A DNA stretch of 64,000 bases from Bryobacterales bacterium. Lineage in GTDB: Bacteria; Acidobacteriota; Terriglobia; Bryobacterales; UBA6623. Shown here in pieces: positions 8,397 through 36,818 of this stretch. Position 1 is the first letter of the stretch; each line of letters opens with the position of its first letter. Location of the stretch: assembly GCA_028819575.1 (NCBI GenBank), contig JAPPLB010000147.1, forward strand, positions 251 to 64,250. The letters run 5' to 3'. Under the pieces are notes generated by a model, which was not told where the DNA came from, made no database searches, and saw only the letters and a program-made list of their open reading frames with translations. A program made the position numbers and the translations under genes.

Positions 8397-9488
8397 ATGC
8401 CCTACGACAAACGCACCGTCGAAACAGGTCGCTCGATTTACGAAACAGCCGTCAGCAGCTTGCAGCTCACGCTGTCCGAAGAGGACATGAATTACCTCTA
8501 CGCCCAGCAGGTCATCGGCATCGATCCCAAGAGCCGCATCATCCTCGAATCCAAGAGAGCCTCTGCCAAACCGAAGAACGAACGTATCGATCTGTTCGAG
8601 AAAGTCAACCGACAGATCATCAAACGCCGCTGGGCTGGAGGCATCGTGATTAAGGCCGTTCGTTCATCCTGCGAATCGCGGCCTCCCTACAAGCGTCTTC
8701 TCTTCCTTCCCCGCCAAATGGTGACCATGACACTACCGCACCGGAAGATCAAAAAGAACGCTTACGTACGCCACGATGGCGACCTCCGCTTAAGCTTCCA
8801 CGTCGATGAAGAAATCGGCCTTCCCTACGGCACCTATGCGCGCCTCATCCTGATGTACCTGACCACCGAACGCGTTCGCAGCAAAGACCGCCGCTTCGAG
8901 CTAAAGTCAACCTGGCGAGCATTCCTTCAAAACATGGAGCTGCCTTGGGGTGGTAATTCGTACCGTCAGATCAAAGAACAGCTCTTCCGTCTCTGCTCCA
9001 CAACCTTCTCCACACACATCGGCAAAAAGGGCGAAGACGAGAAGCACGACAGCCTGCTAATCACCGACCGCTGGTTTCACTCCTCCAACCTCATCGAGAT
9101 CACCTTCAGCGACTCCTTCTTCAACCTCACCCAGCAATCCGTCATTCCTCTAGAGGCAGATAAAGTTCGCCAACTCAAACGTTCGCCTCTCGCCCTCGAC
9201 ATCTACGCCTGGCTCACATACCGCGCTCACAGAATTGACAGAGAGCACTTCATTTCATGGGGAGGGCTCCGCAAGCAATTCGGCTCCTCACTCGGCCGCG
9301 AGCGAGACTTTCGCTCCCGCTTCAAGACAACCATGAACCACGTCCTCAGCCTCAACCCCGTTGCTCCCTATGTGGCCATGAACCGCAAAGGCTTACGGCT
9401 CGCCCCGAACAATCCCGCTGACATGGAATGGATCGAACGTCAGATCGCCAAAGCCACCAGCCTCACACGAGCTCCGTTAATCATCTGA
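8397..9488 (+). CDS. Plasmid replication initiator, RepA (RPA) family-like
   Basis: 363 aa. The stretch LPYGTYARLILMYLTTERVRS and the general layout match my memory of the Pfam RPA (replication initiator protein A) family. It is immediately followed by iterons. Confidence 0.65.
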   Translation: MPYDKRTVETGRSIYETAVSSLQLTLSEEDMNYLYAQQVIGIDPKSRIILESKRASAKPKNERIDLFEKVNRQIIKRRWAGGIVIKAVRSSCESRPPYKRLLFLPRQMVTMTLPHRKIKKNAYVRHDGDLRLSFHVDEEIGLPYGTYARLILMYLTTERVRSKDRRFELKSTWRAFLQNMELPWGGNSYRQIKEQLFRLCSTTFSTHIGKKGEDEKHDSLLITDRWFHSSNLIEITFSDSFFNLTQQSVIPLEADKVRQLKRSPLALDIYAWLTYRAHRIDREHFISWGGLRKQFGSSLGRERDFRSRFKTTMNHVLSLNPVAPYVAMNRKGLRLAPNNPADMEWIERQIAKATSLTRAPLII

Positions 9489-9526: not shown

Positions 9527-9686
9527 GGGACTATCGTCGCGCTTTTTATGGGGACTATTGTCGCGCTTTCTGCGGGGACTATTATCGCGCTTTGCCGGGG
9601 ACTACTGTCGCGTTTTGCGGGGACTACTGTCGCAATTTTCCGGGGACTACTGTCGCAGTTTGCGGGGACTTTGGTCGCGTTCGCCG
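9527..9686 (+). repeat. Seven direct iterons (candidate oriV)
   Basis: GGGGACTAYYGTCGCG-YTTT units start at 9527, 9551, 9575, 9598, 9620, 9643 and 9665 (period 22-24 nt), directly 3' of the RepA-like gene. An inverted half-site AGTCCCC lies at 9776-9782. Confidence 0.85.
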
Positions 9687-13533: not shown

Positions 13534-14511
13534 TTGCGAGGCCGTGAAGTAGAAGCGCGCAGCGGGGCACGCTCGGGTCGAGCGGGCCCCGTCCGCTTCA
13601 AGCCCGTCCCCCACAGTCTCGGCTCGCAAGACGACCGCAGCCAGACTCCCAGCAAACCAAACACCCGACAGCGTCCCGCGCGCTCTCGACGTTCCAGCAA
13701 CCGCGCTCCGCGCCAGCGGCCTTCCCGCCGCAATCGCTCTGCTGACCGCATCGACTTCAAGCAGCGCAAGCGCCAGGCGCTCGACGACGTAGCGACCTAC
13801 CGCGTCGTCAGCGTGCGCGATCTGGTCGAGCGGCGCTTCGGAGGCAACGCCTTCGCCGCCCGCAAGGGCATCGACGCCCTCAAGAACGAGGGATTGCTCC
13901 ATGAGCACACCGTTCGCGTGAAAAGCGGCAAGACCTTCCGCGTCCTGTTCGCTTCACAGAAAGGCCGGCGCCAGGCATGGTGCAGCCGCAAGAACGACGA
14001 TCAGCGCTATTGGTGCGGCTTGGCGAAGCCTTCGGAAATCCGCCACGACGCCACCGTCTACCGCGCTGCCCACAGCGAGATCGCAAAGCTGGAGAAAGCC
14101 GGCTCTTCCGTCAAGCGCATCCAGCTCGACTACGAAATGAAATCCCGCGTGTCGAAGATTGCCGAGAGGGCGCGAGCGAAAGACGGCGGCGAATCCGCCT
14201 TCCTCGCCAAGATCGAGGCCGCCAAGCAGATGAACCTGCCCACCGGCAGCGACGGGAAAGTTCACTACCCCGACGCCCGCATCGAGTACGAGGACGAGCA
14301 GGGCAACCCCGGACGTGTCGATGTCGAAGTCACCAGCGGCAACTACCGCAGCAAGGGCCTGCAAGCCAAACTCTCAGCCGGCTTCAAGCTCTACGCCAAC
14401 GGCAATGCCGCCAAACAGCGCATTGCCTCTGCCTTGGGGATCAGAGAGCCCAAGAGAGGCGGCGGAAGCAAAAGCGGTGCGAGCCGCGATGAGGAGCTGT
14501 TCGAGTTATGA
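13534..14511 (+). CDS. Hypothetical; possibly replication-relaxation family (winged helix + PD-(D/E)xK-like core)
   Basis: TTG start with GGAAAGGAG 8 nt upstream. Basic N-terminal tail, a wHTH-like segment, and YPDARIEYEDEQGNPGRVDVEVTSG resembling a PD..E.. nuclease core. Family call is from memory only. Confidence 0.4.
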   Translation: MRGREVEARSGARSGRAGPVRFKPVPHSLGSQDDRSQTPSKPNTRQRPARSRRSSNRAPRQRPSRRNRSADRIDFKQRKRQALDDVATYRVVSVRDLVERRFGGNAFAARKGIDALKNEGLLHEHTVRVKSGKTFRVLFASQKGRRQAWCSRKNDDQRYWCGLAKPSEIRHDATVYRAAHSEIAKLEKAGSSVKRIQLDYEMKSRVSKIAERARAKDGGESAFLAKIEAAKQMNLPTGSDGKVHYPDARIEYEDEQGNPGRVDVEVTSGNYRSKGLQAKLSAGFKLYANGNAAKQRIASALGIREPKRGGGSKSGASRDEELFEL

Positions 14512-15488
14512 AGTTCCCCCACCTCAACGGGCGCGCCGGCAAGCTGGCAGATTCGCTGGATCTGCCAGCTAATCTTGCGGAATGGCTCGCCGTTTCTGCG
14601 CTTCATTCCGGCTGCTTTCTCCGCTCTCAGCTTCAGTTCTACGGCGGGTACGACGAAGAAAGCCGCAGATCACTCACCCGCGTTATTCGGAAATTATTGG
14701 AAAAGAATCTCATCACCGAAACCCCTGTCGAATCGCTTGGACTGCTCGCCCGCGTCACCAACAAATCCATCTACCGCCTTATTGGTGCGGACAACATCCG
14801 CCACCGGCGCCTTGCAAGCTGGCCCCTGATGTTCCGGCGCTTGCTCGCTCTCGACTACGTTCTCGACCACCCTCAGCTCCCCTGGCTGCCCACGGAAAAC
14901 GAGAAAGTCGCCTGCTTCGATCGGCTTGGAATCAACCATGCCAACCTGCCGCGCCGGGTTTGGAACAACGCCACCGGATACACGGTGCGGCTCTTCGCGA
15001 ACAAGCACCCGATCGCCGTCGATCCCCGCGGCAAGCAAGCCCACTTCGTCTACACCGATTCGGAAGAGAAATCGCCGCAGGGGGTTCGGAGCTGGCGAAC
15101 CGAACACGCGGCGCTGTGGTCCGATCTTCACCGCCTCGGCTTTGACCTTCACATCGTTCACGCCAGCTTCAACCCTCGGCTCGAAGAGAGCGTGAGCCGA
15201 GTGTTCTCAAGCTGGATGAATCAACCTCATTCGACCGTCACCCGTGCCGAGATCGAAGCCGAGATCGCGCTCGTCCAACAGGCCATCCAGTCCGATGACG
15301 AATCCGCCCTGAGGGTCTACGGCGGTTTCAACGGCGCGCTGCATGCTTCCGCCGCTCTCAAGGACCGGCTCGAGGAGCAAACCTCCACCGGTGCCTACAC
15401 CGCCACCTATTCCACCTGGCTCTCCCAACGGATCGCACAGGCCGTCCGCAACCCCAACCCTTCCGGCTCGCACACCCCAAATGCCTAA
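14508..15488 (+). CDS. Hypothetical; possibly replication-relaxation family paralog
   Basis: ATGA overlap with the previous gene. N-terminal wHTH-like segment (CFLRSQLQFY...RVIRKLLEKNLI). Low-confidence family call. Confidence 0.35.
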   Translation: MKFPHLNGRAGKLADSLDLPANLAEWLAVSALHSGCFLRSQLQFYGGYDEESRRSLTRVIRKLLEKNLITETPVESLGLLARVTNKSIYRLIGADNIRHRRLASWPLMFRRLLALDYVLDHPQLPWLPTENEKVACFDRLGINHANLPRRVWNNATGYTVRLFANKHPIAVDPRGKQAHFVYTDSEEKSPQGVRSWRTEHAALWSDLHRLGFDLHIVHASFNPRLEESVSRVFSSWMNQPHSTVTRAEIEAEIALVQQAIQSDDESALRVYGGFNGALHASAALKDRLEEQTSTGAYTATYSTWLSQRIAQAVRNPNPSGSHTPNA

Positions 15489-16172: not shown

Positions 16173-17000
16173 ATGAAACCTGCCGACTTCATTGACGACA
16201 TGTATCGTCCCGACGACCTGGTTGCCCTGGTGCTGGTGTCCCGAGACGAAGAGACGAAAACCCAGCAGAGGATCTGGAACGCCAAGAAGGCCGCTTCGAA
16301 GGAGGTTCTGAAGTGGCTGAAGTACTCCAATTCGCACGGCTACGACATCTACATCGGCATGAACCCCTTGCAGCCCGGATCGCGCACCCGCAATAAGGAG
16401 GACGTTCAGGAAGTCCGCCGCGTCTACCTCGACCTCGACGAGGACGGCCCGTCGAAGCTCAAGGAGGTTCTCCAGGATGGCTTCAGCGGCAGGCTGCCTT
16501 CCGCCTCCTACATCATCAATACCTCTCCGGACCGCTACCAGTTGATCTGGAACGTCAAGCCCGGTTCCTTCACGCCCAGCGAGGCCGAATCTCTGATGCG
16601 CGGCCTCGCCGCCCGCTACGGCGGCGACCGCGCCGTGACCGACGTTTCGCGCGTCCTGCGGTTGCCCGGCTTCAAGCATCGCGGCAAGAACACCTGGATC
16701 ACGATGAGCGCCACGTCGGCGAAGCTCAGCAGCAAACAGGATTGGCCGGCTACCCTCTTCGTGGAGCCGGAGCGAACGGCAAGCGTCAGGCGCAAAAGCT
16801 CTTCCCCACACCGCTCTGGTGGAGATACTTCCCCCTCGGGCCACGATTGGGGCTGGACCAAGGACCAGCTTCGCGACGGCGTTGCCCCCGAAGAGCTGGA
16901 AATCCAACTTGCGGCAGCGCGTCCCGACAAACGCGATCCCGCCGACTACGCCAAGCGCACGGTCGCCCGGGCGCGTGAATCACTTTCACTGGAGCGATGA
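16173..17000 (+). CDS. RepB-type DNA primase domain protein
   Basis: The pattern DDLVALVLV...HGYDIYIGMNPL...VRRVYLDLDEDG...RVLRLPGFKH is typical of RepB_primase / conjugative primase proteins as I recall them. Confidence 0.65.
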   Translation: MKPADFIDDMYRPDDLVALVLVSRDEETKTQQRIWNAKKAASKEVLKWLKYSNSHGYDIYIGMNPLQPGSRTRNKEDVQEVRRVYLDLDEDGPSKLKEVLQDGFSGRLPSASYIINTSPDRYQLIWNVKPGSFTPSEAESLMRGLAARYGGDRAVTDVSRVLRLPGFKHRGKNTWITMSATSAKLSSKQDWPATLFVEPERTASVRRKSSSPHRSGGDTSPSGHDWGWTKDQLRDGVAPEELEIQLAAARPDKRDPADYAKRTVARARESLSLER

Positions 17001-18418
17001 AACCTCGACTCTCGCCCTTCGTCCTGGGCTTCGTCCTGTTGGCGGAAGGCTGGGCCTCGCTCGGAACCGAGATCCTCGCCCTCCGCCGCTTGACGCCCTG
17101 GGCCGGTTCCACGGTCGACGTGACCTCGATACTGCTGGCCGTCTACCTCGCCGCGCTGGCCGGAGGCTACCGCCGTGGAGGCCTGCTGGCTCGTCTGGGC
17201 GATCCCCGCCCGCGCCTGGCGCGCCGCCTGGCCGCCGCCTCCCTGTGGTCGGCCTTCTGGCTGTCGGAACCCGGCGTGCTGCTGGCCTTCTCGCTGCCGG
17301 CCGCTCCGCTGTTGCAGACCTTCGCCTATGCGGTGGTAGGGATCGCGCCGGTCGGCTGGCTGCTCGCCGAATGCGTGCTGCTCGCTCACGCCTGCGCACC
17401 CCTTCGCGACGCTTCCGAGCGCGCCGGCGGTGTCTTCGCCTTGTCCACGGTCGGCAACGTCACCGGAGCACTGGCGGCGACCTTCCTGCTGCTGCCCACG
17501 CTGGGGCTCGCAGCGGCCGTTTTCTCCGTCATGGCCGCTTCCGCCGCGGCCGCGCTTCTGGTGTCGCACCGCAGCATTTCTGTCCACATGCTGCTCTTCG
17601 CCGCTTGCTGGCCGGCCCTCGATCTATGGATCGAGGCCACCCAATACGTCGCCCGCAACGCCTACGCCGACTACCGCATCGTCGCTATCGACGACGATGC
17701 CCGGGTTCTAGTCATCAACAACCAGTCGGCTTCGCGGCATGATCGGGAAGGCCGGGGTTGGGAGTACGCCGAGTTGTTGGAACGCACACTGTGCGGCGCC
17801 GGCGAACACCGCGTGCTCGTTCTTGGCGCTGCCGGCATGACCATCGGCCAGGGCGCGCCGTGCGAACTCGATCTCACCTTCGTTGACATCGATCCCGAGC
17901 AGGAGCAGATCGCCGCGCAGTTTCTCGGCGCCCCGGGAGATACAGCCGGAGAGTTCGCCGGCAGGGACGCCCGCTCCTACCTGCGCGACTCCGAATCCGG
18001 ATGGCAGGCGATCGTCGTCGATGCCTTCACCAATCCCCGCTCCCTGCCGCGGCATTTGCTCACCGCCGAGTTCTACCGCCTTGCGCGTTCCCGGCTCGCA
18101 GACGGCGGCTCTCTCTACGTCAACCACACCACCTACCCGGGCGAAGAGCTCTTCATCACGAGAGCCGAGCGAACCTTGCGAAGCGTTTTCTCCGCGTGCA
18201 CCGTTCGCGCCGCTCAGCTTCCCCCGTCAACCGACTGGCACGAGGAAGCATCCTTCGACCGCAATCTTCTCTTCCGCTGCACGAGGAGCCCCCTCGACGG
18301 CGACCGCGTGATCTACTCCGACAGCGTTTCCAGAGCCGACCTGGACCGCTCTCTTCGATTGCCAAAAAATCGAGGTCATCGAACAATGTTCATGAAAGGA
18401 GACAGCACCCATGAGTAG
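16997..18418 (+). CDS. Fused polytopic membrane / spermidine-synthase-like (class I MTase fold) protein
   Basis: About 220 aa with 6-7 TM helices. Then VLVLGAAGMTIGQG, FVDIDPEQ, IVVDAF and LADGGSLYVN, which resemble aminopropyltransferase motifs. Confidence 0.6.
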   Translation: MKPRLSPFVLGFVLLAEGWASLGTEILALRRLTPWAGSTVDVTSILLAVYLAALAGGYRRGGLLARLGDPRPRLARRLAAASLWSAFWLSEPGVLLAFSLPAAPLLQTFAYAVVGIAPVGWLLAECVLLAHACAPLRDASERAGGVFALSTVGNVTGALAATFLLLPTLGLAAAVFSVMAASAAAALLVSHRSISVHMLLFAACWPALDLWIEATQYVARNAYADYRIVAIDDDARVLVINNQSASRHDREGRGWEYAELLERTLCGAGEHRVLVLGAAGMTIGQGAPCELDLTFVDIDPEQEQIAAQFLGAPGDTAGEFAGRDARSYLRDSESGWQAIVVDAFTNPRSLPRHLLTAEFYRLARSRLADGGSLYVNHTTYPGEELFITRAERTLRSVFSACTVRAAQLPPSTDWHEEASFDRNLLFRCTRSPLDGDRVIYSDSVSRADLDRSLRLPKNRGHRTMFMKGDSTHE

Positions 18419-18614
18419 ACGCTTGACCTATCAGAAGCGCATCGGACCGGACGGCCAACCCGTATCGGTCCCCGTCGTTCCCCCCGACGCCACGCCCGAA
18501 GAGATCGAGGCGATCGTGTCGGAAGAAGGCGCGGCCATCATGACCGACGAGCAGCAGGCCGCCTTCGACAAGTACGTCGGCGAGGGAGTCACTCGCGATG
18601 GCCGTGCACGTTGA
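18411..18614 (+). CDS. Small acidic hypothetical protein
   Basis: 67-aa ORF overlapping both neighbours by a few codons. No family recognised. Confidence 0.35.
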   Translation: MSRRLTYQKRIGPDGQPVSVPVVPPDATPEEIEAIVSEEGAAIMTDEQQAAFDKYVGEGVTRDGRAR

Positions 18615-20832
18615 CGACATAAACGAGCGCGACGAAAACGGTGCCGGCTACTTGCACCACGCCGCCATCAATGATGACGGTCCTGTGGTTCGGTGGTTGC
18701 TTCAGAATGGAGCCGATCCGAATCAGCCCGATCATGATGGCCGCCGGCCCTTGCATGAGGCCGCCGAATCCAAATCCATCGTATCTGTTGCTCTGTTGCT
18801 TGAAAACGGAGCAAGCCCGCACGTTCACGAAAAGCACCTTGAACAAACACCCTTGCATCGAGCAGCCCTGTTCGGCTCATCCGAAGTATCTGAACGCTTG
18901 ATCGAAGCCGGCGCGGACCCCAACGCACGTGATTCGAACGGCGATACCCCGCTTCACCTGGCCCTCAGCGACCTCACCAACGAGAAGTCGCAGCTACCCG
19001 TGATCAATCGTTTGCTTGAAGGCGGAGCCGACCCCGACTTGGCCGACAGACAGTTAGGTCGAACGCCGCTGAACCTTGCCGCCGTCTACGGCAAACTCGA
19101 AACTGCCGATCGCTTGCTCGAAGCAGGGGCACACACCCATTGTCCCGACAAGGACGGCTATAGCGCCTTGCACGTAGCTTCGCGGTGCTCGGCGGCACTG
19201 ACAGAACGCTTGCTGAAGGCCGGCGCAAGCCCGCACACCCACTCCCATAGCGGCCGCACACCGCTCCACGAAGCAGCCTCATTCAGCTCGACAAGGAGCG
19301 TCGAGCGATTGCTCGAAGCAGGAGCCGACCCCAACAGCCGTGATAGGCACGGACAAACCCCCCTGCACTTGGCCGCTTCGGCCCAATCAACCGAGACGGT
19401 CGAGCGCCTGATCGAAGCCGGTGCGGACCCCAATGCGAAAAACGAGATCGGCTGGACCCCGCTGCATTCGGCGGCCGTTGCCAACGATATGCAGACCATC
19501 GACCACTTGCTCAAAGCCGGCGCCGACATGAGAGCCCACAAACCCGGAGATGTCGGAACACCTTTGGAGCTCGCCAAGACGTACAAATCGGCCGAAGCCG
19601 TAGGCCATCTCGCCCGCGCCGAAACCGTCCGTGACTCGGCCGAGCAATCGCCTTCCTACAACCGCTACCGCCGCACGGAAAACACACCCTCTAACGAACG
19701 CGGAGAGACCGTGCCGCAGAACGGCAAGGAACTCTCCCAACAGTCGAACACTCAACACCAAAACCACCACAAGGAGAACCCCATGCCGCAAGAACACTGG
19801 AGCAAAAGCAAAAGCGCACGGCAATTCACCGAACAGGTTGCCGAGCGCGTCGCCAAGCAGGTCGAGCAGGGCAAGGCCCCCTGGCAGAAAGGATGGGACA
19901 AGCCCAAAGGTGCAGACTTGCAGCCCTTCAATCCTGCAACCTTGAAGCGCTTCAAGGGACTCAACTCCGTCCAGCTTCGTTCCGTTGCCGAGGAGAAAGG
20001 CTACAACGATCCGCGCTGGATGAGCTTCCAGGCCGCCAACCAGATCGGAGCGAAAATCCGCAAGGGCGAGCGCGGCACCCGCGTCGAATACCTGCGCTTC
20101 CCGCCCAAGTCGGCGGACAAGGATGCGCCTGGCGTCGGCGCCGACGGCAAGTTGAAGGAACCGCCCAAAATCTCCCACCACACCTACACCGTGTTCAACG
20201 CCGAGCAGATCGAGAAGATGCCGCCGCTGGATCAGCAGTTACCCAAGGATCCCCAGCAGCACGAGATCTGCGAACGCGCCGAGCGCATGATCCAGGACTC
20301 CGGCGTGAAGTTGGAGAATCCGCCCAACGGGCAGAACTTCGCCAACTACGACAAGGATCGAGACACCATCGTGATCCCCGATATCGAGAAGTTCAAGTCG
20401 CCCGAAGCCTACTACGGCCAGGCCGTGAAGGAAATGACGAACCAGGCCGGCCACAAAGCTCAACAGGACCGCTCCGAACCGCAGAACGAAGCCCAGCAGC
20501 ATACTGCAGCCGCTCGCCAGGACATGCGCAGCGAAATGGCCTGCCTGACCATTAACGAGAAACTGCATCTTCCCAAGGAGCCCACCGGCGAGCGCCACCA
20601 GAAGCAATGGGCGGAAACCATCCGGAAGAACCCCAACGAACTGCGCTACGCCGCCAGGGACGCCGACCAGATCGCCGACCAGGTGCTCCAGCACGACCGG
20701 CCGCAGCAACGCCAGCAGTCCGAGCCCAGCCGCGAGGCCTCTACTGCTCAGGTCACTCCCGAGCGGGTGCAGGAAACCCAACGCGCCCTGCAACAGCCGC
20801 AACGCGAAATGGCCGCCGCCATGAGTCGCTAG
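18598..20832 (+). CDS. Ankyrin-repeat / ArdC-like fusion protein with degenerate metallopeptidase motif
   Basis: About 10 ankyrin repeats (G-TPLH-A...LLEAGADPN) in aa 1-330. An ArdC N-domain (APWQKGW...FNPATLKRFKGLNSVQL...RWMSFQAANQIGAKIRKGERG) follows. KEMTNQAGH stands where the paralog has HELGHWTGH. Confidence 0.8.
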   Translation: MAVHVDDINERDENGAGYLHHAAINDDGPVVRWLLQNGADPNQPDHDGRRPLHEAAESKSIVSVALLLENGASPHVHEKHLEQTPLHRAALFGSSEVSERLIEAGADPNARDSNGDTPLHLALSDLTNEKSQLPVINRLLEGGADPDLADRQLGRTPLNLAAVYGKLETADRLLEAGAHTHCPDKDGYSALHVASRCSAALTERLLKAGASPHTHSHSGRTPLHEAASFSSTRSVERLLEAGADPNSRDRHGQTPLHLAASAQSTETVERLIEAGADPNAKNEIGWTPLHSAAVANDMQTIDHLLKAGADMRAHKPGDVGTPLELAKTYKSAEAVGHLARAETVRDSAEQSPSYNRYRRTENTPSNERGETVPQNGKELSQQSNTQHQNHHKENPMPQEHWSKSKSARQFTEQVAERVAKQVEQGKAPWQKGWDKPKGADLQPFNPATLKRFKGLNSVQLRSVAEEKGYNDPRWMSFQAANQIGAKIRKGERGTRVEYLRFPPKSADKDAPGVGADGKLKEPPKISHHTYTVFNAEQIEKMPPLDQQLPKDPQQHEICERAERMIQDSGVKLENPPNGQNFANYDKDRDTIVIPDIEKFKSPEAYYGQAVKEMTNQAGHKAQQDRSEPQNEAQQHTAAARQDMRSEMACLTINEKLHLPKEPTGERHQKQWAETIRKNPNELRYAARDADQIADQVLQHDRPQQRQQSEPSREASTAQVTPERVQETQRALQQPQREMAAAMSR

Positions 20833-20956: not shown

Positions 20957-21997
20957 ATGACGAAATGGAAGAAGGGCAGTAGCGCCCGTCAGTTCGCGGA
21001 GAAGGCTGCGGAGAAGATGATCGAGCAGCTCAAGAAGGGTGTCGCTCCCTGGCAGAAGGAATGGGATAAGCCCGAGGGCTCGGAGCTTCCCCCATTCAAC
21101 CCCGTCACCGGAACCCGCTACCGCGGCCTCAACTCATTCGTGCTGGCTTCGGAAGCCGGCGAGCGTGGATATGCAGATCCGCGATGGACCACCTATCGCG
21201 GCGCGAAGAAGGTCGGAGCGCAAGTCCGCAGGGGCGAGAAGGGAGTCGGAGTCGAGTACTGGAAGTTCCCCACCAAGGAGCAGGAGGACAGGGTACGCGC
21301 CGCGATCGCTGCCGGCCAGCAGCCCGAAGAACTCAAGATCATCCACCGCACTTACACGGTGTTCAACGCCGAGCAGATCGAAGGGATGCCTTCTCTCGAA
21401 AGCGAGCTCAAGAAGGTGAACCAGTGGGAAACCTGCGAACGCGCCGAAGCCTTGCTGCAGGCGTCGGGCGCGAACATCGAACACCGTGGCGGCAACCGAG
21501 CTTTCTACCGTCCCTCACAGGACTTGATCGTGCTGCCGAAGCAGGAGCAGTTCCACTCGCCCGAAGCCTACTACTCGACGGCGCTTCACGAGCTCGGCCA
21601 CTGGACCGGACACAAGAGCCGGCTCGATCGCTCGGAACTGATGAAGGGCAGCTTCGGTTCTCCGGAGTACGCCAAGGAAGAACTGCGGGCGGAAATGACT
21701 TCCGTGACCGTCAATGGGATGCTGCGGCTGCCGCACGATCCGAACAGCCATGCATCCTATGTCGGTTCCTGGATCAAGACTCTTGAGGACAACCCCAACG
21801 AGCTGCGCTACGCAGCCCGCGACGCCGGCAAAATGTCGGATTACATCCTTCAGTTCGACCGTTACCAGGAGCGCCAGGCCGAAGAAAAGCCCCGCGAAGC
21901 GGGCCTTTCCTCATCGGTTTACCGGCAACAGCCTGATCTCAGCCAGCGACCGCAGCCGCAACCGGGGAAAGAGCCGGTTTCAGCACTGGATCGCTGA
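20957..21997 (+). CDS. ardC: Antirestriction protein ArdC (ssDNA-binding N-domain + zincin peptidase)
   Basis: APWQKEW, FNPVTGTRYRGLNSFVL, RWTTYRGAKKVGAQVRRGEKG, and an intact HELGHWTGH. Confidence 0.85.
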   Translation: MTKWKKGSSARQFAEKAAEKMIEQLKKGVAPWQKEWDKPEGSELPPFNPVTGTRYRGLNSFVLASEAGERGYADPRWTTYRGAKKVGAQVRRGEKGVGVEYWKFPTKEQEDRVRAAIAAGQQPEELKIIHRTYTVFNAEQIEGMPSLESELKKVNQWETCERAEALLQASGANIEHRGGNRAFYRPSQDLIVLPKQEQFHSPEAYYSTALHELGHWTGHKSRLDRSELMKGSFGSPEYAKEELRAEMTSVTVNGMLRLPHDPNSHASYVGSWIKTLEDNPNELRYAARDAGKMSDYILQFDRYQERQAEEKPREAGLSSSVYRQQPDLSQRPQPQPGKEPVSALDR

Positions 21998-22006
21998 TTT
22001 CAAGGT

Positions 22007-22048
22007 GCCCCGTTAAAAAACCTTAACGGGGCATCCTAACGGGGCATA
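22007..22048 (+). terminator. 10-bp hairpin after ardC plus direct 11-mer repeat
   Basis: GCCCCGTTAA (22007-22016) pairs with TTAACGGGGC (22023-22032). TAACGGGGCAT is repeated again at 22036-22046. No T-tract, so it may be a protein site rather than a terminator. Confidence 0.35.
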
Positions 22049-22099
22049 TTCCACTTTTCGCAACTTGCAGTTTCTCAAGCAGTTAAGCAATTCTGCTCA

Positions 22100-22213
22100 C
22101 CCCGCCTGTGCCATGCGAGGCGGGGTTCGTGTGCGTGTAGCGACCCCCCCTTTTTGCCACTTCGTATGGCACGGCCTCTGCCCTACGGGCCGAGGTTCGG
22201 GGGGTCGCTACAC
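22100..22213. promoter_or_regulatory. Candidate oriT core: nested inverted repeats
   Basis: A 7-bp hairpin CCCCGCC/GGCGGGG (22100-22125). Then a perfect 15-bp IR GTGTAGCGACCCCCC (22135-22149) / GGGGGGTCGCTACAC (22199-22213) enclosing two small hairpins. Lies between the ArdC genes and the coupling-protein gene. Confidence 0.35.
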
Positions 22214-22250
22214 GCTTGATCGATCCCTGCGGGAAGGCCGGAAGCGCTTT

Positions 22251-22460
22251 GCGCTGAAAATCCGCCGCTTGAAAAGCTTTCTCGCTCGCTGCGCTGAATC
22301 CCTGTTGACGCCCCGCTGAACGAAACTCCATCACGTTCGCTTTTCAGCGTTTTTCAGTTTTTCGACTCGATAGGATTCAGTACCCACCTCCTCGAATCCC
22401 ACTGAATACGCCTGTTGTCACTCGGATTCAGTTCGTTTCTTGGCAGCTTACGCCGTTCAG
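22251..22460. repeat. Cluster of about 9 CTGAA/TTCAG short repeats
   Basis: GCGCTGAA at 22251 and 22291, and CGCTGAA at 22314. TTCAG at 22343, 22353, 22376, 22427 and 22456. CTGAAT at 22402. All lie in 210 nt of non-coding DNA upstream of virD4. Confidence 0.5.
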
Positions 22461-22612
22461 CCCTTCTCTGCCTTTTCTCCCCGACCCGGATTCTCCAAGA
22501 AGCTCAGACCGCCGATACTCAGCTCGTGCAAATCGACGGCTTGTACGAAATGGGAATCTCCTGCTTCTGAGGCGACTAGATCGCCGCTCTCTCCGCGTCG
22601 AACCGGCCCGCT

Positions 22613-24682
22613 ATGCTTTGCCGATTCGCCTTCGCTTGGCATCCTGTATGCATGAAGTTCGCGCTTCCCTGGATCGCCGGTTTCCTTCTCTCGCTCTCCC
22701 GCTGGCGCTGGGAGCCCTTCCCCGCTTCCGGTGCGAACCCGTTCCTCGATCTTATCGAGCTGAACGATCCCGCTCTCTTCCATCTCATCGTGGGCTGGTA
22801 CTATCTCGCGCCCTGGGCCGCCGCCGGAGTCGGCGGAGCGCTGCTTCTCTCGATGTGGCAAATCTGGTTCGCCGGCCTCGGCAACGGCAGCGGCGGCCGT
22901 GGTTCGCTGCCGCGCTGGCCGTCATCCTCGAATGACAAGTCGATCTCTCTCGTCGTGGGGGAAACCCACCACCCCACCAGGCCGGTCGAGTCGGAACAAC
23001 CCGACTGGCTGGTGCTCTCCGAAAAAGGACTCTTTACCGGCGTTGCCGTAGTCGGAGCCGTGGGGACCGGCAAGACCTCCGCCTGCATGCAACCCTTCGC
23101 CGAGCAGCTCTTCTCGTGGCAGTCCCATGACTCCCACAAGAAAGCGGCCGGCCTCGTGCTCGAAGTCAAAGGCGACTTCTGCTACGCCATCCGCGACGTG
23201 CTGGACAAGCACGGCCGCGGCGACGACTACCTTGAAATCGGCCTCAACAGTCACTGGCAGTGGAACCCCCTCGATGCGCACTGGATGGATTCCTACTCGC
23301 TGGCGTACACCATCGCCTCGCTGATGAACCAACTCTTCGGCCGCGGCAAGGAGCCCTTCTGGCAGCAGGCATCCACCAATCTCGTTCGCAACATCATCGA
23401 ACTCTACCGCGTCACCACCGGCTGGGTGACTCTTCAAGATGTGTACAACTGCGCGATCGATCCCGAGCTGCTCGGCAACAAGATCGAAAAAGCCTACAGC
23501 GAAGCCGCTCCACCCCCTCCGCCCGAGGCTCGCATCTTCGTTCCGCAGTGGGCGTTCACCGCTCACGGCCGTAAGCTCAAGGATTGGGAATGGAAGGACG
23601 AGCCCGACAAGGAGAAGTCGGCTGTTGTTGACGCCGATCTTGTCGCCACTCTTACGAAGCTCAGCATCGACCATCGCACCGTCGAGCCGCCCGCTGCGAA
23701 CACCGCCGGCAAGTCACCCCGTCTGGAGCGAATCGAGGCTGTGAAGCGCTGGTATCACCTCGACTGGATGAAGATCGATCTGAAGCTGCGAACCTCCATC
23801 GTCGAAGGAATCTCCGTTTTCCTGGGACTTTTCGATACCCCCGAAGTTGCCCGCATGTTCTGCCCGCCTGAACCCGAGCGCGAGCCGGAAACCATGTCAC
23901 CTGCGAACGGAGCTGCGGCCGGGGCAACGCAGATCGCCACCTTGCGGCCTCTTCCCTCGCTCAGCTCGCTCATCGAGGAAGGCAAGGTGATCTGCCTCAA
24001 CATGCCCGTTTCATCCAACGCCGCCCTCGCTCGCGCGATCGGCGTGATGCTCAAGCAAAGCTGGCTGGGCGCGCTGCTGCTGCGTCCGGCCGACATGCGC
24101 AAGCTGCCCACGAAGTACTTCCGGCCGGCCGTCTTCCTGTGCGACGAATACCAGTCGTTCGCCACCGTAGGCGAGGCCGATCCCAGCGGAGACGAGAAAG
24201 CCTTCGGCCTCAGCCGGCAGTCGCGCTGCATCCCGATCGTCGCCACGCAGTCGATTTCCTCGCTGCGCTCCGTCACCGGCAGCGGCGAAGCCTGGCGCAC
24301 CCTGTTTCAGAACCTCAGAACGAAGGTCTTCCTCTCTCTCAGCGACGATTCCTCCGCCCGCATCGCTTCGGAAATGTGCGGCCAGGTCGAAGTGCTCAAG
24401 ACCGCCTACTCCTTCAACGAGTCCACGCCGAAGGCCGGCATCTCGCTCTTCAGCGGGGCGCCCGGAGGCGGCAAGTCCTCGCTGGGAGTCTCCAAGTCCT
24501 TCCAGGACCGCATGGAACCGCTTTTCCGGCCAAAGGCATTTGCCGAGCTCGATACCGGCCAGGCCATCGTGCTGCCCTACGACGGTAAGAAGAACCTGTC
24601 CGCCCGCCGCTGCTACCTCAAGCCGTTCTACCTGCCACGTGATCTCAGCTACTGGCGCCAGCAAGAGAAAGGAATGATATGA
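22613..24682 (+). CDS. virD4: Type IV coupling protein (VirD4/TraG-like)
   Basis: N-terminal TM helices, Walker A VVGAVGTGKTS and Walker B VFLCDEYQSF. The start may be ATG 22652 (MKFALPW). Confidence 0.85.
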   Translation: MLCRFAFAWHPVCMKFALPWIAGFLLSLSRWRWEPFPASGANPFLDLIELNDPALFHLIVGWYYLAPWAAAGVGGALLLSMWQIWFAGLGNGSGGRGSLPRWPSSSNDKSISLVVGETHHPTRPVESEQPDWLVLSEKGLFTGVAVVGAVGTGKTSACMQPFAEQLFSWQSHDSHKKAAGLVLEVKGDFCYAIRDVLDKHGRGDDYLEIGLNSHWQWNPLDAHWMDSYSLAYTIASLMNQLFGRGKEPFWQQASTNLVRNIIELYRVTTGWVTLQDVYNCAIDPELLGNKIEKAYSEAAPPPPPEARIFVPQWAFTAHGRKLKDWEWKDEPDKEKSAVVDADLVATLTKLSIDHRTVEPPAANTAGKSPRLERIEAVKRWYHLDWMKIDLKLRTSIVEGISVFLGLFDTPEVARMFCPPEPEREPETMSPANGAAAGATQIATLRPLPSLSSLIEEGKVICLNMPVSSNAALARAIGVMLKQSWLGALLLRPADMRKLPTKYFRPAVFLCDEYQSFATVGEADPSGDEKAFGLSRQSRCIPIVATQSISSLRSVTGSGEAWRTLFQNLRTKVFLSLSDDSSARIASEMCGQVEVLKTAYSFNESTPKAGISLFSGAPGGGKSSLGVSKSFQDRMEPLFRPKAFAELDTGQAIVLPYDGKKNLSARRCYLKPFYLPRDLSYWRQQEKGMI

Positions 24683-25896
24683 GCTTGTCTTTGGAAGAAG
24701 TGCTGGCTGCCCTTCCCAAGAGGCTCCGAAAGGTCTTTGAGGATTCCTCCGTCACCGAGTTGATGATCAACTCTCCCGACTCGGTCTGGTTCGAGAAAGA
24801 AGGATGCCTCTATCCCGTCTACACCGACAAGACCCCCAAGGCCGAGGCGCTCACCGAGCGGATGCTCGATACCTTCGTCAAGCGCATCGCGCGCCCCCTG
24901 GGGCTCGACGCCGACAAGAAATCTCCCATCGTCGATGCCCGCTTGCCTGACGGCTCGCGCGTCGCCATCGCCTGCCCGCCCATCACCGAGGGCCTGGCTC
25001 TCTCGATCCGCCGCTTCGGCAGCCGATCCTGGACCGCTGCCAAGCTCGTCGAGACAGGCGCGGTTCCGGCCGAGGTTCTCTCGCTCATCGTCCGGGCTCT
25101 CAGCCAGCGCGAGAACGTCATCATTTCCGGAGGGACAGGAACCGGCAAGACCACGATGCTCAGCGCATTCGCCTCGCTCATCAACGAGGAAGAACGGATC
25201 GTATGCATCGAGGACACCCGCGAGCTTCACATCCCCGCTCCCAACTGCCTGCGGCTGGAAGCCAAGAGCATCCGGGAGGAAAAGGAAGGCGTACCCGTCA
25301 CGATCCGCGATCTGGTGCGCCATGCGCTTCGCCACCGTCCGGACCGGCTCATCGTAGGCGAGGTTCGCGGCGAGGAAGCCCAAGACCTCATCGAGGCGCT
25401 CAACACCGGCCACGGCGGTTCTATCTCTACCGTCCACGCCAACTCCGCACGGGCGGCGCTCACGCGCCTGGCAACCTGCGCCCTGCAATCCAAATCCGCT
25501 CCGCCGTGGGACGTGATCTGCGAACACGTCGCACTGGCGGTGCAGTACGTCATCCACCTGCATCGCTTCCTCGACGGTCGCCGTGGGGTGCATCAGGTTC
25601 TCAAAGTCAACAGCTACGACCGCAACCTGCAGGACTACAACTGCTCGATCATTTGGGAAGCTCCCCCGATCAACAGCAACGGCAACGGCCACCCCGGCGC
25701 CGAACACATCATCACCCGCGCCCTCGATCCCGCTCTCTCCATCCGTTACTGCATCGAATGCTCCGCAGAGCTGCCAAGCTCCGGTAAGGGCAGCCAGTCC
25801 GATCTCTGTATCGGTTGCCGCCGCAAGAAACAAAATCGCGCCGCCTACCTTCGCCGCAAAGCCGAATCGGAGAACTCAACTCCTTCCGACGACTGA
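24679..25896 (+). CDS. virB11: T4SS ATPase VirB11/TrbB (T2SS-E family) with C-terminal Cys4 tail
   Basis: Walker A SGGTGTGKTT, Asp box IEDTREL, Walker B RLIVGEVRGEEA and His box TGHGGSISTVHA. C-terminal CIEC...CIGC. ATGA overlap with virD4. Confidence 0.85.
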   Translation: MSLSLEEVLAALPKRLRKVFEDSSVTELMINSPDSVWFEKEGCLYPVYTDKTPKAEALTERMLDTFVKRIARPLGLDADKKSPIVDARLPDGSRVAIACPPITEGLALSIRRFGSRSWTAAKLVETGAVPAEVLSLIVRALSQRENVIISGGTGTGKTTMLSAFASLINEEERIVCIEDTRELHIPAPNCLRLEAKSIREEKEGVPVTIRDLVRHALRHRPDRLIVGEVRGEEAQDLIEALNTGHGGSISTVHANSARAALTRLATCALQSKSAPPWDVICEHVALAVQYVIHLHRFLDGRRGVHQVLKVNSYDRNLQDYNCSIIWEAPPINSNGNGHPGAEHIITRALDPALSIRYCIECSAELPSSGKGSQSDLCIGCRRKKQNRAAYLRRKAESENSTPSDD

Positions 25897-26378: not shown

Positions 26379-27467
26379 TCAGTGGAGATCGACGAGGCCG
26401 CACTTGAAGCCGGGAGGATCAGGAATCAGGGTCTTAGAGAGCTGTGGTAGCGGCGGCAGCCGGTCGAGCGCCCAGGCGAGCCTCTCAGGAGGAAGGCACA
26501 TTCCCGGCCAGGTCGAGGCGCCCGGATTCGCTCGCTGGTAGCTCTTTTGATCGAAGTAGCGTCCGAACACCATCAATTCGAACCACTCGTAGCGATGCGG
26601 AGCGTACTGTTCGAGCTCGTCATGAGTCATGTGCTTCCAATACTCGATGCGGTCCTTACGCCATTCCAGCGTCAGCGCATCGTCGATGAAATAGAACTGG
26701 GTAAAGTCCGCCAGAGTTTCCGCTGCCCGGCTGCGAGTCTCCATTTCGTAACCGTCCCGTTCCCGCAACGGCTGGCCGGATTCCTGCAGCAAGGCGCGGT
26801 CCGCATCGTAGGCTACAAGCCAGCTTTCGTGCAGCACTAAGCCATTTACCTCTTGGTTCTCGTACCAGCAGGCTTGACGAACTCTTCTCTCGTATAGATG
26901 CATCAGCTCGTGTAAAAAGGTTTGCTTCTCACCATACGGATGTCCGCTGTTGCGGCCATTCGACCAGACAATCATTCTGCTGGCCGAGCCGGCAGCCCCC
27001 GGAACCAAAGGAATCTCACCTGAACGTGTGACATACAGCGCGCCAGCGACAAGAGGCATGTAACGAAGCATCGTGTCCGATATCCCATCGGGCCACTTCG
27101 CCCCTAATGCGGTGCGGGCTCCGGATTCCACCTCGACTTCGCGTGGCTCCAGGGGCTCGCACTCGAAATCGTTGACGGGACAATCCTTCGCTTCTAGTTG
27201 CAACCTTGCCGGTGAGGGAAGATCGGGAATGCTGAACCATCCAGCCGAATCGGTATGCACCGGAATCGGACAATCCGGCTGGCAATCGATCACCTTGACC
27301 CGTACGCCTTGCAAGGGAATGATCGGGAACTCCCCCGGTCCTAGTTTGTACCAGTTCTCATCAAGAAGTTCTTCGTCGATACGTCCCACCTGACCCGAAA
27401 ACTCTTGCGCCAAAAGAGACGCTGCAGCGAGCTGCATCAACGGCAGAATCAAAGCGAGTCTTGTCAT
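26379..27467 (-). CDS. Secreted HExxH metallopeptidase-like protein
   Basis: Start taken at ATG 27467 (signal peptide MTRLALILPLMQLAAASLLAQE). Contains FLHELMH. The upstream 450 aa of the ORF-track entry were rejected (see noticed_but_rejected). Confidence 0.6.
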   Translation of the reverse strand: MTRLALILPLMQLAAASLLAQEFSGQVGRIDEELLDENWYKLGPGEFPIIPLQGVRVKVIDCQPDCPIPVHTDSAGWFSIPDLPSPARLQLEAKDCPVNDFECEPLEPREVEVESGARTALGAKWPDGISDTMLRYMPLVAGALYVTRSGEIPLVPGAAGSASRMIVWSNGRNSGHPYGEKQTFLHELMHLYERRVRQACWYENQEVNGLVLHESWLVAYDADRALLQESGQPLRERDGYEMETRSRAAETLADFTQFYFIDDALTLEWRKDRIEYWKHMTHDELEQYAPHRYEWFELMVFGRYFDQKSYQRANPGASTWPGMCLPPERLAWALDRLPPLPQLSKTLIPDPPGFKCGLVDLH

Positions 27468-27578
27468 ATCTATTTGACGTATCGGCGCTTGCGGGCGTTG
27501 CCCTTTCAGCTCTTCTACACCCTTCGAAACTAGCACAATCGGCTTGTCAGAAATCCAGTTCGGTGGGACGATTTCCTC

Positions 27579-29042
27579 ATGACCTGCTTGCGGAGTATCT
27601 CTCGATTCGTAGTTGTGTTCATGGCCCTGGTGGGCATCACAGCCGCTGCCGTTCCGGCCGGCTGGATCGCCCTTCGCTATGAAGCCCCCAGCGGAGAAGA
27701 TCAGAAGGGACATTGGATCATCGTCAAGGCTCCCGAGGACGGCCTGGCCGCCTGGTGGAGCGACGCCGAACTCGCCAAGATCGCGGCGAACGACCCGGAC
27801 TATGTGAAACGGCTGGAAACCGACTGGACCCCATCGGACCATCCCGTAGCCGAAGAGGATGAAGCCGAGCGCCTGGCCGTGGAACTGGCCGAGTATTGGG
27901 GCGGCGACCTGCCGCAGGCCAACTTCTGGGCGCATGGCGCGTTGACCCGACGCGGCGATACGCTGAGCGCTTTTCGCTGGGAGCAGGACGGACCGGCGCA
28001 ACGGACCGACCTGGAAGACGCCGGCGAGCGCCCGAAGACGGCCGTAGCTCCGATCGATCCCGACCCGGTCGATCAGCGTTACGACAACAGCACGGACCTC
28101 GTAAGCTACGGCGACCGCTGGGGCAGTCACTTGACCGGCGGCACGCTCGATCATGTCTACACGTCCGAGCAGAACAAGGCGCAGCGGCGTCATCACCCCA
28201 ACTCGCCACCCGCAGGCGAAGTTACACAGAAGACCAAAGAAACGGTCAAAGCCTGCCGCGAAGCAAGCCTCGAAGCCGAGCTGGGGGTGTTCGAGAACTA
28301 TGTCCGTGGCTGGGGCGGACTCAGCGCCAAGAGCCTGACCTACGGACTGCCAGCAAACTGTGTTTCGGACCCCGGACCGCTCGCCCTGGCACCGCCACCT
28401 CCGCCTCCGTCGCCGCCGCCTCCACCGCCTCCGCCTCCTCCACCGGCGCAGCCGAAACCCAACCCACCCAAACCGCCAAGTCCTACTCTCTACAGTGCCT
28501 GCGATGGCAGCAAGCATGCCACGCAGGCTGCGGCCAACGCCGTGGACTGCTCTCCACCGCCTCCACCGCCGTCCGACCCCGATCCGGAGCCGGAGCCTGA
28601 GCCGGTAACACCGCGTCCTTCCAAACCGAGACCTCCCAAGCCTACTCGCTACACTGCCTGCGACGGCAGCAAGCACTCCACACAGGCCGCGGCAAATGCC
28701 GTTGACTGCTCTCCACCACCGCCACCGCCGCCGCCTCCGCCACCTCCACCGCCGCCTCCTCCGCCTCCACCACCTCCACCGCCGCCTGAAGAGGACTACG
28801 AAGCTTGCGACGGTACGATGCACAGCACCCAGGCCGCAGCCGACGCCGTAGATTGCTCTCCACCGCCTCCTCCTCCGGAGCCACCTGAACCGCTACCTCC
28901 ACCAGACGATCCGACCTACACCGCTTGCGACGGAACACTCCATTACAGCCAGGAGGATGCCGATGCCATCCCCTGCTACGGCGAGGAAACCAACGAGCTA
29001 TGCGAGGAGGACCCCTTCGCGCCAGGATGCGACCAGTTCTAG
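27579..29042 (+). CDS. Membrane-anchored proline-rich protein with four Cys-pair repeats
   Basis: N-terminal TM helix, then a ~270-aa domain. Then 4 copies of Y-x-ACDG-x-x-H-x-x-Q-x-x-A-x-A-(V/I)-(D/P)-C separated by poly-Pro runs of up to 27 consecutive Pro. Confidence 0.6.
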   Translation: MTCLRSISRFVVVFMALVGITAAAVPAGWIALRYEAPSGEDQKGHWIIVKAPEDGLAAWWSDAELAKIAANDPDYVKRLETDWTPSDHPVAEEDEAERLAVELAEYWGGDLPQANFWAHGALTRRGDTLSAFRWEQDGPAQRTDLEDAGERPKTAVAPIDPDPVDQRYDNSTDLVSYGDRWGSHLTGGTLDHVYTSEQNKAQRRHHPNSPPAGEVTQKTKETVKACREASLEAELGVFENYVRGWGGLSAKSLTYGLPANCVSDPGPLALAPPPPPPSPPPPPPPPPPPAQPKPNPPKPPSPTLYSACDGSKHATQAAANAVDCSPPPPPPSDPDPEPEPEPVTPRPSKPRPPKPTRYTACDGSKHSTQAAANAVDCSPPPPPPPPPPPPPPPPPPPPPPPPPEEDYEACDGTMHSTQAAADAVDCSPPPPPPEPPEPLPPPDDPTYTACDGTLHYSQEDADAIPCYGEETNELCEEDPFAPGCDQF

Positions 29043-36387: not shown

Positions 36388-36443
36388 GGGGTGTTCTACG
36401 CCTTTCCGCCTGCAGGGGGTGAGCGGAAAGCTCCAAACACTTT
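36388..36443 (+). promoter_or_regulatory. Hairpin element copy 1 (degenerate left arm)
   Basis: Sequence ggggtgttctacgcctttccgcc-tgcagggg-gtgagcggaaagctccaaacacttt. AGGAGG at 36448 and ATG at 36465. Confidence 0.7.
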
Positions 36444-36464
36444 AACCAGGAGGATTTAACCATC

Positions 36465-36737
36465 ATGTCCAGCACCATCACCAAGCCCGTTGCGGAGGTT
36501 CGAGTCGGTAGGGTCAAGGCCGCCATCTGGCCCAACCAGACCGAATCCGGCGCCGTTCGCCACAACGTCACCTTCGCGCGCATCTACAAGGACGCCAACG
36601 GCGAGTGGAAATCCACTTCCAGCTTCGGCCGCGACGACCTGCTCGTTGTGGCGAAGGTCGCCGACCTGGCGCACACCAAGATCTTCGAGGTCGCCAACGG
36701 CCACGGCGCCGACCCGGACGGCGAACCGCAGTCCTGA
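36465..36737 (+). CDS. Small beta-rich protein, possibly PC4/YdbC-like ssDNA-binding fold
   Basis: 90 aa. RVGRVKAAIWPN...RHNVTFARIYKDANGEWKSTSSFGRDDLLVVAKVADLAHTKI loosely recalls PC4-type ssDNA binders. This is speculative. Confidence 0.45.
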   Translation: MSSTITKPVAEVRVGRVKAAIWPNQTESGAVRHNVTFARIYKDANGEWKSTSSFGRDDLLVVAKVADLAHTKIFEVANGHGADPDGEPQS

Positions 36738-36753
36738 TCCCCAGCCGTTCCCA

Positions 36754-36781
36754 GGCGGGGCGAAAGCCCCGCCTTTTTTTC
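36754..36781 (+). terminator. Rho-independent terminator
   Basis: GGCGGGGC-GAAA-GCCCCGCC followed by TTTTTTT. Confidence 0.8.
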
Positions 36782-36818
36782 ATGTTCTTGCTTCCAATGC
36801 CCGGAGAAACATCGTCTC

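Follow-up and report, generated by a model that had tools for sequence, protein, structure and literature searches.

A conserved inverted repeat with an invariant 15-nt motif as the probable origin of transfer of an integrative conjugative element in a Bryobacterales bacterium

In this study, we report that a non-coding site at positions 22133-22237 (with flanks from about 22075) of a 64,000-nucleotide stretch of Bryobacterales DNA (contig JAPPLB010000147.1; the whole stretch is hereafter called the window) is probably the origin of transfer (oriT) of an integrative conjugative element of about 58 kb. An origin of transfer had previously been predicted from the letters of the intergenic region 22007-22612. 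This reading is the best supported, on the basis of the conservation of an inverted repeat and a motif, the covariation of the repeat arms, the adjacency to the coupling-protein gene and the reuse of the site next to integrase and cargo genes; the reasons given in the original prediction were weaker. It fits better than a promoter of the coupling-protein gene, an RNA or a replication origin. The nicking, the choice of strand and the identity of the enzyme are what we infer from this architecture. The window has housekeeping genes (Rho, 2-oxoacid dehydrogenase E2 and E3) left of 8.3 kb, and just right of its end there are a resolvase and a tyrosine integrase, followed again by housekeeping genes. 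Given these housekeeping genes on both sides, the window holds most of the integrated element. The contig is a scaffold of 84.5 kb from a public metagenome assembly, and for one protein an identical record exists in a Bryobacterales metagenome-assembled genome. The parts of the site and the genes most directly related to it are as follows.

22006..22046, + strand: hairpin and direct repeat of TAACGGGGCA, starting 9 nt past the ArdC stop codon; peripheral to the core
22077..22085, + strand: box AAGCAGTTA, left edge of the block conserved in Bryobacterales; its GCA.TTA columns are invariant in 9 lineages
22099..22126, + strand: upstream hairpin with 9-bp arms (22099-22107/22118-22126) and a loop with conserved GTGC
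22133..22149, + strand: left (distal) arm of the 17-bp inverted repeat, GCGTGTAGCGACCCCCC; its core AGCGACCC is constant and its outer bases are lineage-specific
22150..22198, + strand: spacer of 49 nt with internal hairpins (22155-22171 and 22174-22196) that persist though the sequence differs by lineage
22199..22215, + strand: right (proximal) arm, GGGGGGTCGCTACACGC, 7 nt upstream of the invariant motif
22216..22237, + strand: linker TTGATCG and invariant motif ATCCCTGCGGGAAGG (22223-22237), the putative nick or recognition region
22247..22460, no strand assigned: array of nine (G)CTGAA/TTCAG(C) repeats, three forward, three reverse and then mixed
14508..15488, + strand: 326-amino-acid protein combining a winged helix of MarR/ArsR type at the N-terminus with an alpha/beta domain that has no match, encoded directly upstream of the site in most relatives
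20957..21997, + strand: ArdC (N-terminal domain binding single-stranded DNA, and zincin peptidase), the upstream neighbour in the Bryobacterales clade only
22653..24682, + strand: VirD4-type coupling protein, encoded directly downstream of the site in most relatives

The key element of the site, the motif ATCCCTGCGGGAAGG at 22223-22237, begins 7 nt past the right arm and was absent from the features listed in the original prediction. Its conservation was evaluated in 79 loci retrieved with the coupling protein from species-representative genomes, which are mostly from Acidobacteriota (Bryobacterales, Vicinamibacterales, Holophagales, Thermoanaerobaculia and others), with a few binned as Gemmatimonadota or other phyla. 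The motif was found in about 55 of them (at most two mismatches), down to about 50% coupling-protein identity, and this short stretch is 100% identical even where the coupling proteins are just about 50% identical. It lies nearly always on the strand of the coupling-protein gene and is preceded by the arm GGGTCGCT(ac/cc), with the complementary AGCGACCC situated 60-90 nt further upstream. In most lineages it follows the 15-18-bp repeat arm by 5-7 nt, or by about 17-19 nt in those with one more small hairpin in between. The motif can form a mini-hairpin, TCCC-TGC-GGGA, whose loop (TGC, TCC or TTC) is its sole variable part. It occurs once in the window. The bare 15-mer was also encountered 32 times in viral contigs, never with a repeat arm in register, and for this reason these copies are regarded as chance matches and a phage origin of the site was rejected. 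Within the Bryobacterales clade the intergenic region can be aligned at DNA level, and there the conserved block reaches leftward to about 22075, taking in the AAGCAGTTA box and the 22099-22126 hairpin. The stem of this hairpin, to which arms of 7 nt had been attributed and which in fact has arms of 9 nt, covaries among Bryobacterales lineages (CCCCGCC/GGCGGGG, CCCTTCC/GGAAGGG and CCCTCGTG/CACGAGGG).

The large inverted repeat with two enclosed hairpins had been recognized in the original prediction, as perfect over 15 nt; it is perfect over 17. As a single strand, positions 22128-22245 give a Y-shaped fold on either strand (z = -5.9 and -5.6; 0 of 200 shuffles were as good). Covariation was assessed in 43 distinct sequences, with the arms anchored on GCGAC/GTCGC. 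The outer six to eight arm bases are lineage-specific (GCGTGTAGCGAC, GCCCGTAGCGAC, GACGGGAGCGAC, GGACGTGAGCGAC, AGAAGTGAGCGAC, GTTGCGAGCGAC and AACCGGGAGCGAC), and the opposite arm always matches. In total, 85.4% of the cells were paired compared with 72.7% after shuffling, and the covariation score was 0.331 compared with 0.113 in shuffled sets (reached by 0 of 500) and 0.02-0.13 when the partner was slid by 1-3 columns. At five arm positions both sides had changed in 10-22 of the 43 sequences, four of these positions reaching 17-22, and no more than four cells were unpaired; it must be considered that the best-matching arm pair was chosen among a few GCGAC/GTCGC candidates, which slightly biases these counts. 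The arm pairs are strictly Watson-Crick, G-T and A-C combinations appearing 5 and 7 times, respectively, among 731 cells. This lack of G-T bias points to selection at DNA level and argues against an RNA structure. The spacer differs in sequence in each lineage and retains two or three hairpins; when folded alone over 42 lineages, its mean z was -2.5, with 74% of the lineages below -1.64.

With respect to its placement, the site belongs to the non-coding DNA of a conjugative element, where genes for DNA processing and coupling and a VirB2-B11 set are its neighbours. In the window, VirB2, VirB3 and VirB4 are encoded at 9.8-12.9 kb, followed by a RepB-type primase (16173-17000), an ankyrin-ArdC protein (18598-20832) and ArdC (20957-21997); downstream of the site come the coupling protein and VirB11 (24679-25896), and then VirB9, VirB10, VirB6 and VirB8. 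These agree with the flanking genes originally named, namely the primase and two ArdC genes upstream and the VirD4-type coupling protein and VirB11 downstream, while the start of the coupling-protein gene, given at 22613, must be corrected to the conserved ATG at 22653. In the majority of the distant relatives the order is VirB4-B9-B10-B6-B8, the homologue of the 14508-15488 protein, the repeat and motif, the coupling protein and VirB11. In the Bryobacterales clade, genes for an outer-membrane protein, the primase, an MFS/spermidine-synthase-like protein and the ArdC proteins lie between the 14508-15488 open reading frame (ORF) and the site. The ArdC and primase genes are therefore not constant neighbours of the site.

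Some loci have two copies of the repeat and motif (L033, at 4769 on the + strand and 14539 on the - strand; L032, L043, L134 and L149). In L033 two whole transfer modules are arranged head to head, and in L032 two inverted copies are 1.6 kb apart. Up to seven copies of the element family were found in one chromosome: the Bryobacterales chromosome OZ242366.1 contains seven diverged copies (L001, L012-L015, L018 and L051), and another one, OZ241991.1, contains five (L003, L005-L007 and L016).

The site is also reused outside complete transfer regions. Metagenome contigs were scanned with the pattern GGTCGC-N8-32-ATCCCTGCGGGAAGG, which matched 100 stretches, 80 of which were analyzed. At least 80 further copies were thus obtained, many of them with no coupling-protein or VirB gene in the available sequence; because many of the contigs are short, such absence of genes is often uninformative. 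A P4-type tyrosine integrase gene adjoins 15 of the copies, usually 0.5-1.8 kb downstream and pointing at the motif, and others adjoin McrB-like cargo. A homologue of the 14508-15488 protein is encoded within 3.5 kb in 12 of the 80, usually upstream (at 263-533 nt in nine), and in L095 and L111 this homologue stands beside the site with no transfer genes in view. As far as sequence context indicates, such modular spread would fit a cis-acting transfer site common to conjugative and mobilisable islands.

In characterised origins, the conserved nick region is directly preceded on its 5' side, along the transferred strand, by an inverted repeat that varies more (PMC3772185). The site has the same design, an invariant 15-mer with a more variable, covarying inverted repeat just 5' of it. 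By analogy, a site-specific processing protein would recognise the Y-structure that the 17-bp repeat makes with the two hairpins inside it, together with the invariant ATCCCTGCGGGAAGG starting 7 nt 3' of the stem, and would nick one strand in or next to the motif. The nicked strand would be passed to the VirD4-type coupling protein and exported via the VirB-type secretion system, and the repeat would enter last and terminate transfer, while the CTGAA array on the 3' side would provide binding sites for a clade-specific protein. The + strand is more likely to be the nicked one because the repeat then lies 5' of the nick. In that case, the coupling-protein side would enter first and the ArdC and primase genes last, which is the opposite of what had been argued from the geometry of a leading region. 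The ArdC and primase genes do point at the site, as had been indicated, but the conclusion drawn from it is doubtful, given that the rule of the repeat 5' of the nick gives the opposite polarity. The arms carry no strand signal in their G-T and A-C counts. Altogether, we lean towards the + strand as the one that would be transferred.

The nicking enzyme would fall outside all the families tested, and its best candidate, also for the binding of the site, would be the winged-helix protein encoded at 14508-15488, which is the sole conserved non-secretion protein beside the site. This protein had no match in Pfam, NCBIfam or the PDB sequences and no significant fold match in PDB, and no homologue was found in the PLSDB plasmids by tblastn. 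Its family comprises 1,876 representatives at 50% identity (E up to 0.001), and a second profile search of the protein database returned close homologues only. Three of its members (P0162, P0183 and P0185) are natural fusions of an N-terminal ArdC module with the candidate family, which links the family to the handling of single-stranded DNA. PF13814 (Replic_Relax) gave no match in 30 family members at E up to 1, and comparison by hhalign with a TraX alignment based on pTEF1 gave a marginal result (probability 5.5%, P = 0.007, 110 columns). The aligned region covers the winged helix and the following helix, with a DY(V/L)L..HP.L..(T/S)E stretch, and the PD-(D/E)XK catalytic residues of TraX have no clear invariant counterparts in the family. 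This marginal similarity to TraX and the MOBC relaxases may be taken as a lead and not as membership. We also contemplate, tentatively and as a rather doubtful proposal, that the repeat and motif are the oriT of a large undescribed family of Acidobacteriota elements whose relaxase, the winged-helix protein, would represent a new non-HUH family; if so, the islands with just an integrase and the site would hitch-hike on this system. An 814-amino-acid ORF (26379-28823, - strand) was also considered as a hidden relaxase and rejected, as it is mostly an antisense artefact of a proline-rich gene of the + strand. It shadows 27579-29042 (+), with PPPP repeats at 28383-28877, and its C-terminal part of about 350 amino acids looks real, with a signal peptide and an HELMH (HExxH) motif, and secreted.

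It must be noted that a number of results weigh against an origin of transfer at this site. Among those plausible window ORFs that were submitted to Pfam or NCBIfam scans, and among the neighbouring ORFs in the relatives, no relaxase of a known family came up, nor was there one among the called genes right of the window, and the regular expression for the three-histidine HUH motif found none in a credible ORF of about 160 related loci. In the candidate protein, a nuclease signature was not detected, and few residues are invariant across the wide family. The motif is, to our knowledge, unlike every known nick sequence, and it lacks the ATCCTG hexamer of the MOBP origins, an extra C giving ATCCCTG here. 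In PLSDB, neither the 2.6-kb region nor the 51-nt core had DNA matches other than ArdC/TraC coding similarity or chance hits. The reasons originally given are also weaker than they seemed: the 22007-22046 hairpin can be aligned in close relatives only, the CTGAA array keeps its positions in L001-L010 and L016 (the closest clade) and to some extent in L012-L018 but is missing from the other loci, and in distant relatives the site does not have the ArdC and primase genes beside it. The strand heuristics are in conflict, the repeat 5' of the motif and the downstream integrases favouring the + strand and the ArdC and primase genes the - strand. Just 12 of the 80 metagenome copies are near the candidate protein, though many contigs are short. 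Finally, just 3-20 nt separate the end of the motif from the first in-frame ATG of the coupling protein in compact relatives. GGGAAGG could act there as a ribosome-binding site, so that the conservation of the motif may partly reflect expression signals.

The proposed oriT was compared with several known systems. The MOBP nick consensus is (C/T)ATCCTG(C/T) (PMC3772185). As in the MOBP origins (RP4/R751 oriT, Ti borders, Helicobacter pylori tfs4 oriT), the conserved motif is a few bases 3' of a more variable repeat (PMC3772185), the site is intergenic and beside DNA-processing and coupling genes, and the motif includes GATCCCTGC, which resembles the consensus. Unlike them, neither a MOBP relaxase (PF03432) nor an HxDx..HxH motif was found in the scanned ORFs and loci, the repeat spacer is structured and has 49-93 nt instead of forming a tight hairpin, and the conserved stretch, of 15 nt, is longer than the MOBP core. 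The MOBP consensus is matched once near the site, by CATCCTGT at 22640; the window has 9 such matches, a number expected by chance, and this one is not kept in the relatives. Since the defining hexamer is absent, the site is not a MOBP origin. TraX of pAD1, a MOBC relaxase of non-HUH type, combines a winged helix with PD-(D/E)XK, corresponds to Pfam PF13814 and binds direct repeats 70-120 bp from the nick (PMC12857230). The likeness to the MOBC origins (pAD1/pAM373 oriT2) consists of a large inverted repeat beside an array of short repeats, which here is present in one clade only, and of a location between the coupling gene and a gene for an N-terminal winged-helix protein of about 260-330 amino acids. 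This layout is also seen in pTEF1, whose TraX homologue adjoins its coupling-protein gene. The difference lies in the protein itself, which lacks both the PF13814 match and clear counterparts of the PD-(D/E)XK residues. In the MOBF and MOBQ systems (R388 IR2-nic, RSF1010/R1162) there is a hairpin 5' of the nick, with about 8 nt from stem to cleavage, and the relaxase reads the hairpin and single-stranded DNA. The case of R388 has been described (PMC4176350). The site shares with them a hairpin-forming repeat 5' of the putative nick region. Their sequences are not similar to that of the site, its stem contains two additional hairpins, and the searches yielded no HUH relaxase.

The strongest competing explanation, though one that we consider unlikely, is single-strand priming. 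According to it, the site would be a single-strand initiation site (ssi/sso) at which a primase, either the RepB-type primase of the element (16173-17000) or the host RNA polymerase, would read the Y-fold and its unpaired tail and prime the complementary strand in the recipient, with a role in establishment and not in nicking. RSF1010 ssiA and ssiB are recognised by RepB', and the architecture of the site resembles theirs. Like these sites and the sso of rolling-circle replicons, it has a folded single strand and a conserved unpaired segment, it is modular and orientation-specific, and a RepB-type primase is encoded in the element; the primase gene directly adjoins the site in L069 and is close by in L074 and L129. 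The strong and conserved single-strand fold with a conserved 3' tail is what priming would demand, but it does not distinguish such a site from an oriT, and mobilisable islands would also gain from a priming site. What speaks for the origin of transfer instead is that the primase gene is within 10 kb in just 21 of the 79 loci (6 of them distant ones), and it is not the primase that is the constant neighbour of the site, as could be expected by comparison with ssi/sso, but the candidate protein and the coupling protein. In addition, there is one copy, in one orientation, per element, and the symmetric arms, with no G-T bias, do not fix by pairing which strand folds. It must also be considered that, if the site were not the oriT, the element would be left with no other oriT candidate, as none was found.

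A role in the expression of the coupling-protein/VirB11 operon appears somewhat less probable still. Here the inverted repeat would be the operator of a winged-helix repressor, for example the 14508-15488 protein, the motif would hold a ribosome-binding site, GGGAAGG, in an occluding hairpin, and the CTGAA repeats would be further operators. The position of the motif just before the coupling-protein ATG in compact relatives, the possible TCCC/GGGA pairing and the MarR/ArsR-type winged helix of the neighbouring conserved protein agree with this, and since oriTs often overlap promoters both roles are compatible. Other relatives depart from this arrangement. In the window, 415 nt separate the motif from the start codon, and in L002 (8951-9964; also in L003-L010) a 337-amino-acid PP-loop/PAPS reductase-like gene with an SGGRTS motif lies between the site and the coupling-protein gene. 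In these relatives the conserved part (22011-22429 in the window) is separated from the coupling gene by a gene of about 1 kb, and therefore it is not simply its promoter. In L021, L069 and L074 the site has minus-strand or convergent genes around it, at a distance from the coupling-protein gene. By rough gene calls, 45 of 134 instances have a convergent gene as the next one downstream, and in just 34 does the next gene lie within 60 nt; many copies have no coupling-protein gene nearby. A sigma-70 consensus scan of the region gave no promoter-like match, which is weak evidence in Acidobacteriota, and an RNA hairpin should tolerate G-U pairs, which are not favoured in the arms.

Much less probable is a site for a tyrosine recombinase, which would act on folded DNA as with integron attC or CTX attP and would integrate or resolve the element. 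A structure conserved over sequence, together with a conserved core, recalls attC, and a tyrosine integrase gene is found within 0.2-1.8 kb in 15 metagenome copies and in L074. In the window, however, the site occupies a central position in the integrated element and is flanked left and right by its genes, the integrase being about 42 kb away at the right end, and most of the related conjugative loci have no integrase near it. Neither tRNA genes nor flanking duplicates were found beside the site copies, and a tRNA-linked attachment site was accordingly rejected. A structured non-coding RNA or 5' untranslated-region element on the + strand is the least credible explanation, because, despite the covarying stems and an orientation shared with the flanking window genes, Rfam 15 gave nothing at gathering score in the window and just noise at E up to 10 in 21900-22700, G-U is not preferred over A-C (5 and 7 cells, respectively), both strands fold equally well and the site often faces convergent genes.

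A replication origin for RepA was also rejected, given that RepA has its own iterons. The RepA-type initiator (RepA_C/RPA) is encoded at 8397-9488, and directly after its gene, at 9540-9653, there are four to five tandem iterons of 22-24 nt (CGCTTTnTGCGGGGACTAyTrT), which are probably the vegetative replication origin of the element.

What is new in the proposed oriT is an oriT-like architecture that has no sequence relative among the plasmids and the origin types compared and belongs to an element family for which the searches gave no recognised relaxase. In soils and as sponge symbionts, Acidobacteriota rank among the most abundant bacteria, and we know of no experimental work on conjugation in this phylum. 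Standard relaxase searches find nothing in this element and consequently it would be scored as a secretion system without relaxase. A defined and conserved cis site, together with a single candidate protein, makes the initiation of transfer directly testable. In this regard, the tools for predicting gene flow could gain a further relaxase family and a new type of origin from this system, and the site would be a handle for mobilisable vectors in a phylum that is hard to manipulate genetically.

The remaining parts of the intergenic region appear to be peripheral to the core. The first hairpin and its direct repeat, described in the original prediction, are real, with 100% complementary arms of 11 nt (22006-22016/22023-22033) according to the repeat computation, and TAACGGGGCA is directly repeated at 22024-22033 and 22037-22046. 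They are probably the end of the ArdC transcript or the site of a regulator. A terminator consensus scan showed no T-run at the 22006-22046 hairpin and nothing in the region, a result of little weight for this phylum. The CTGAA/TTCAG repeats, estimated at about nine in both orientations, are exactly nine in 22254-22460, whereas about 0.4 would be expected from the window density (128 per 64 kb); a clade-specific protein with an accessory or regulatory role probably binds to them. Next to the coupling-protein gene, TGGCATCCT (22636-22652 in the window) is found 8-10 nt before the ATG in all the Bryobacterales relatives, with variable surrounding bases, and its GGCATCCT recurs at 22029-22037, in the hairpin-repeat at 22021-22037. 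A regulator may have its sites in these sequences, one at each end of the intergenic region.

Other features of the element were also recorded. At 36402-44696, 50315-50379 and 52252-52281 there are 11-13 copies, in the same orientation, of an intergenic unit of 65-85 nt, consisting of GGGTTCTCCGCTTTCCGCC, a loop of 10-12 nt and GAGCGGAAAGCTCCnAACCC, behind which come CAGGAGGA and the start codon of a small gene on the + strand. The hairpin hardly varies in sequence, and an outer stem that pairs with the ribosome-binding site seems variable between copies. The genes behind the unit include DUF3560, SocA/Panacea and DUF29, the last in three copies. The unit may serve this block of small genes as a repeated control element of translation or transcription, or as a single-strand promoter; if it were a single-strand promoter, the - strand would be the transferred one. 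The ankyrin-ArdC gene at 18598-20832 is an unusual fusion of six or more ankyrin repeats with a full ArdC module (ArdcN and zincin peptidase), beside the stand-alone ArdC gene, and the fused MFS/spermidine synthase-like gene at 16997-18418 (NCBIfam NF037959) is an odd cargo between the primase and ArdC genes. Towards the right of the element, 52482-58853 (-) encodes a GTPase-centred conflict system with GAP1-N1, DO-GTPase1, DO-GTPase2, GASH and GAAD with a metallophosphatase, followed by SRAP (59459-60151) and a gene with an NYN domain (61106-62059). These GTPase, SRAP and NYN genes (52482-62059) are probably defence cargo. Near the right end of the element, beside DUF6166, a second and short VirB11/T2SSE-like ATPase of 202 amino acids is encoded at 62427-63035.

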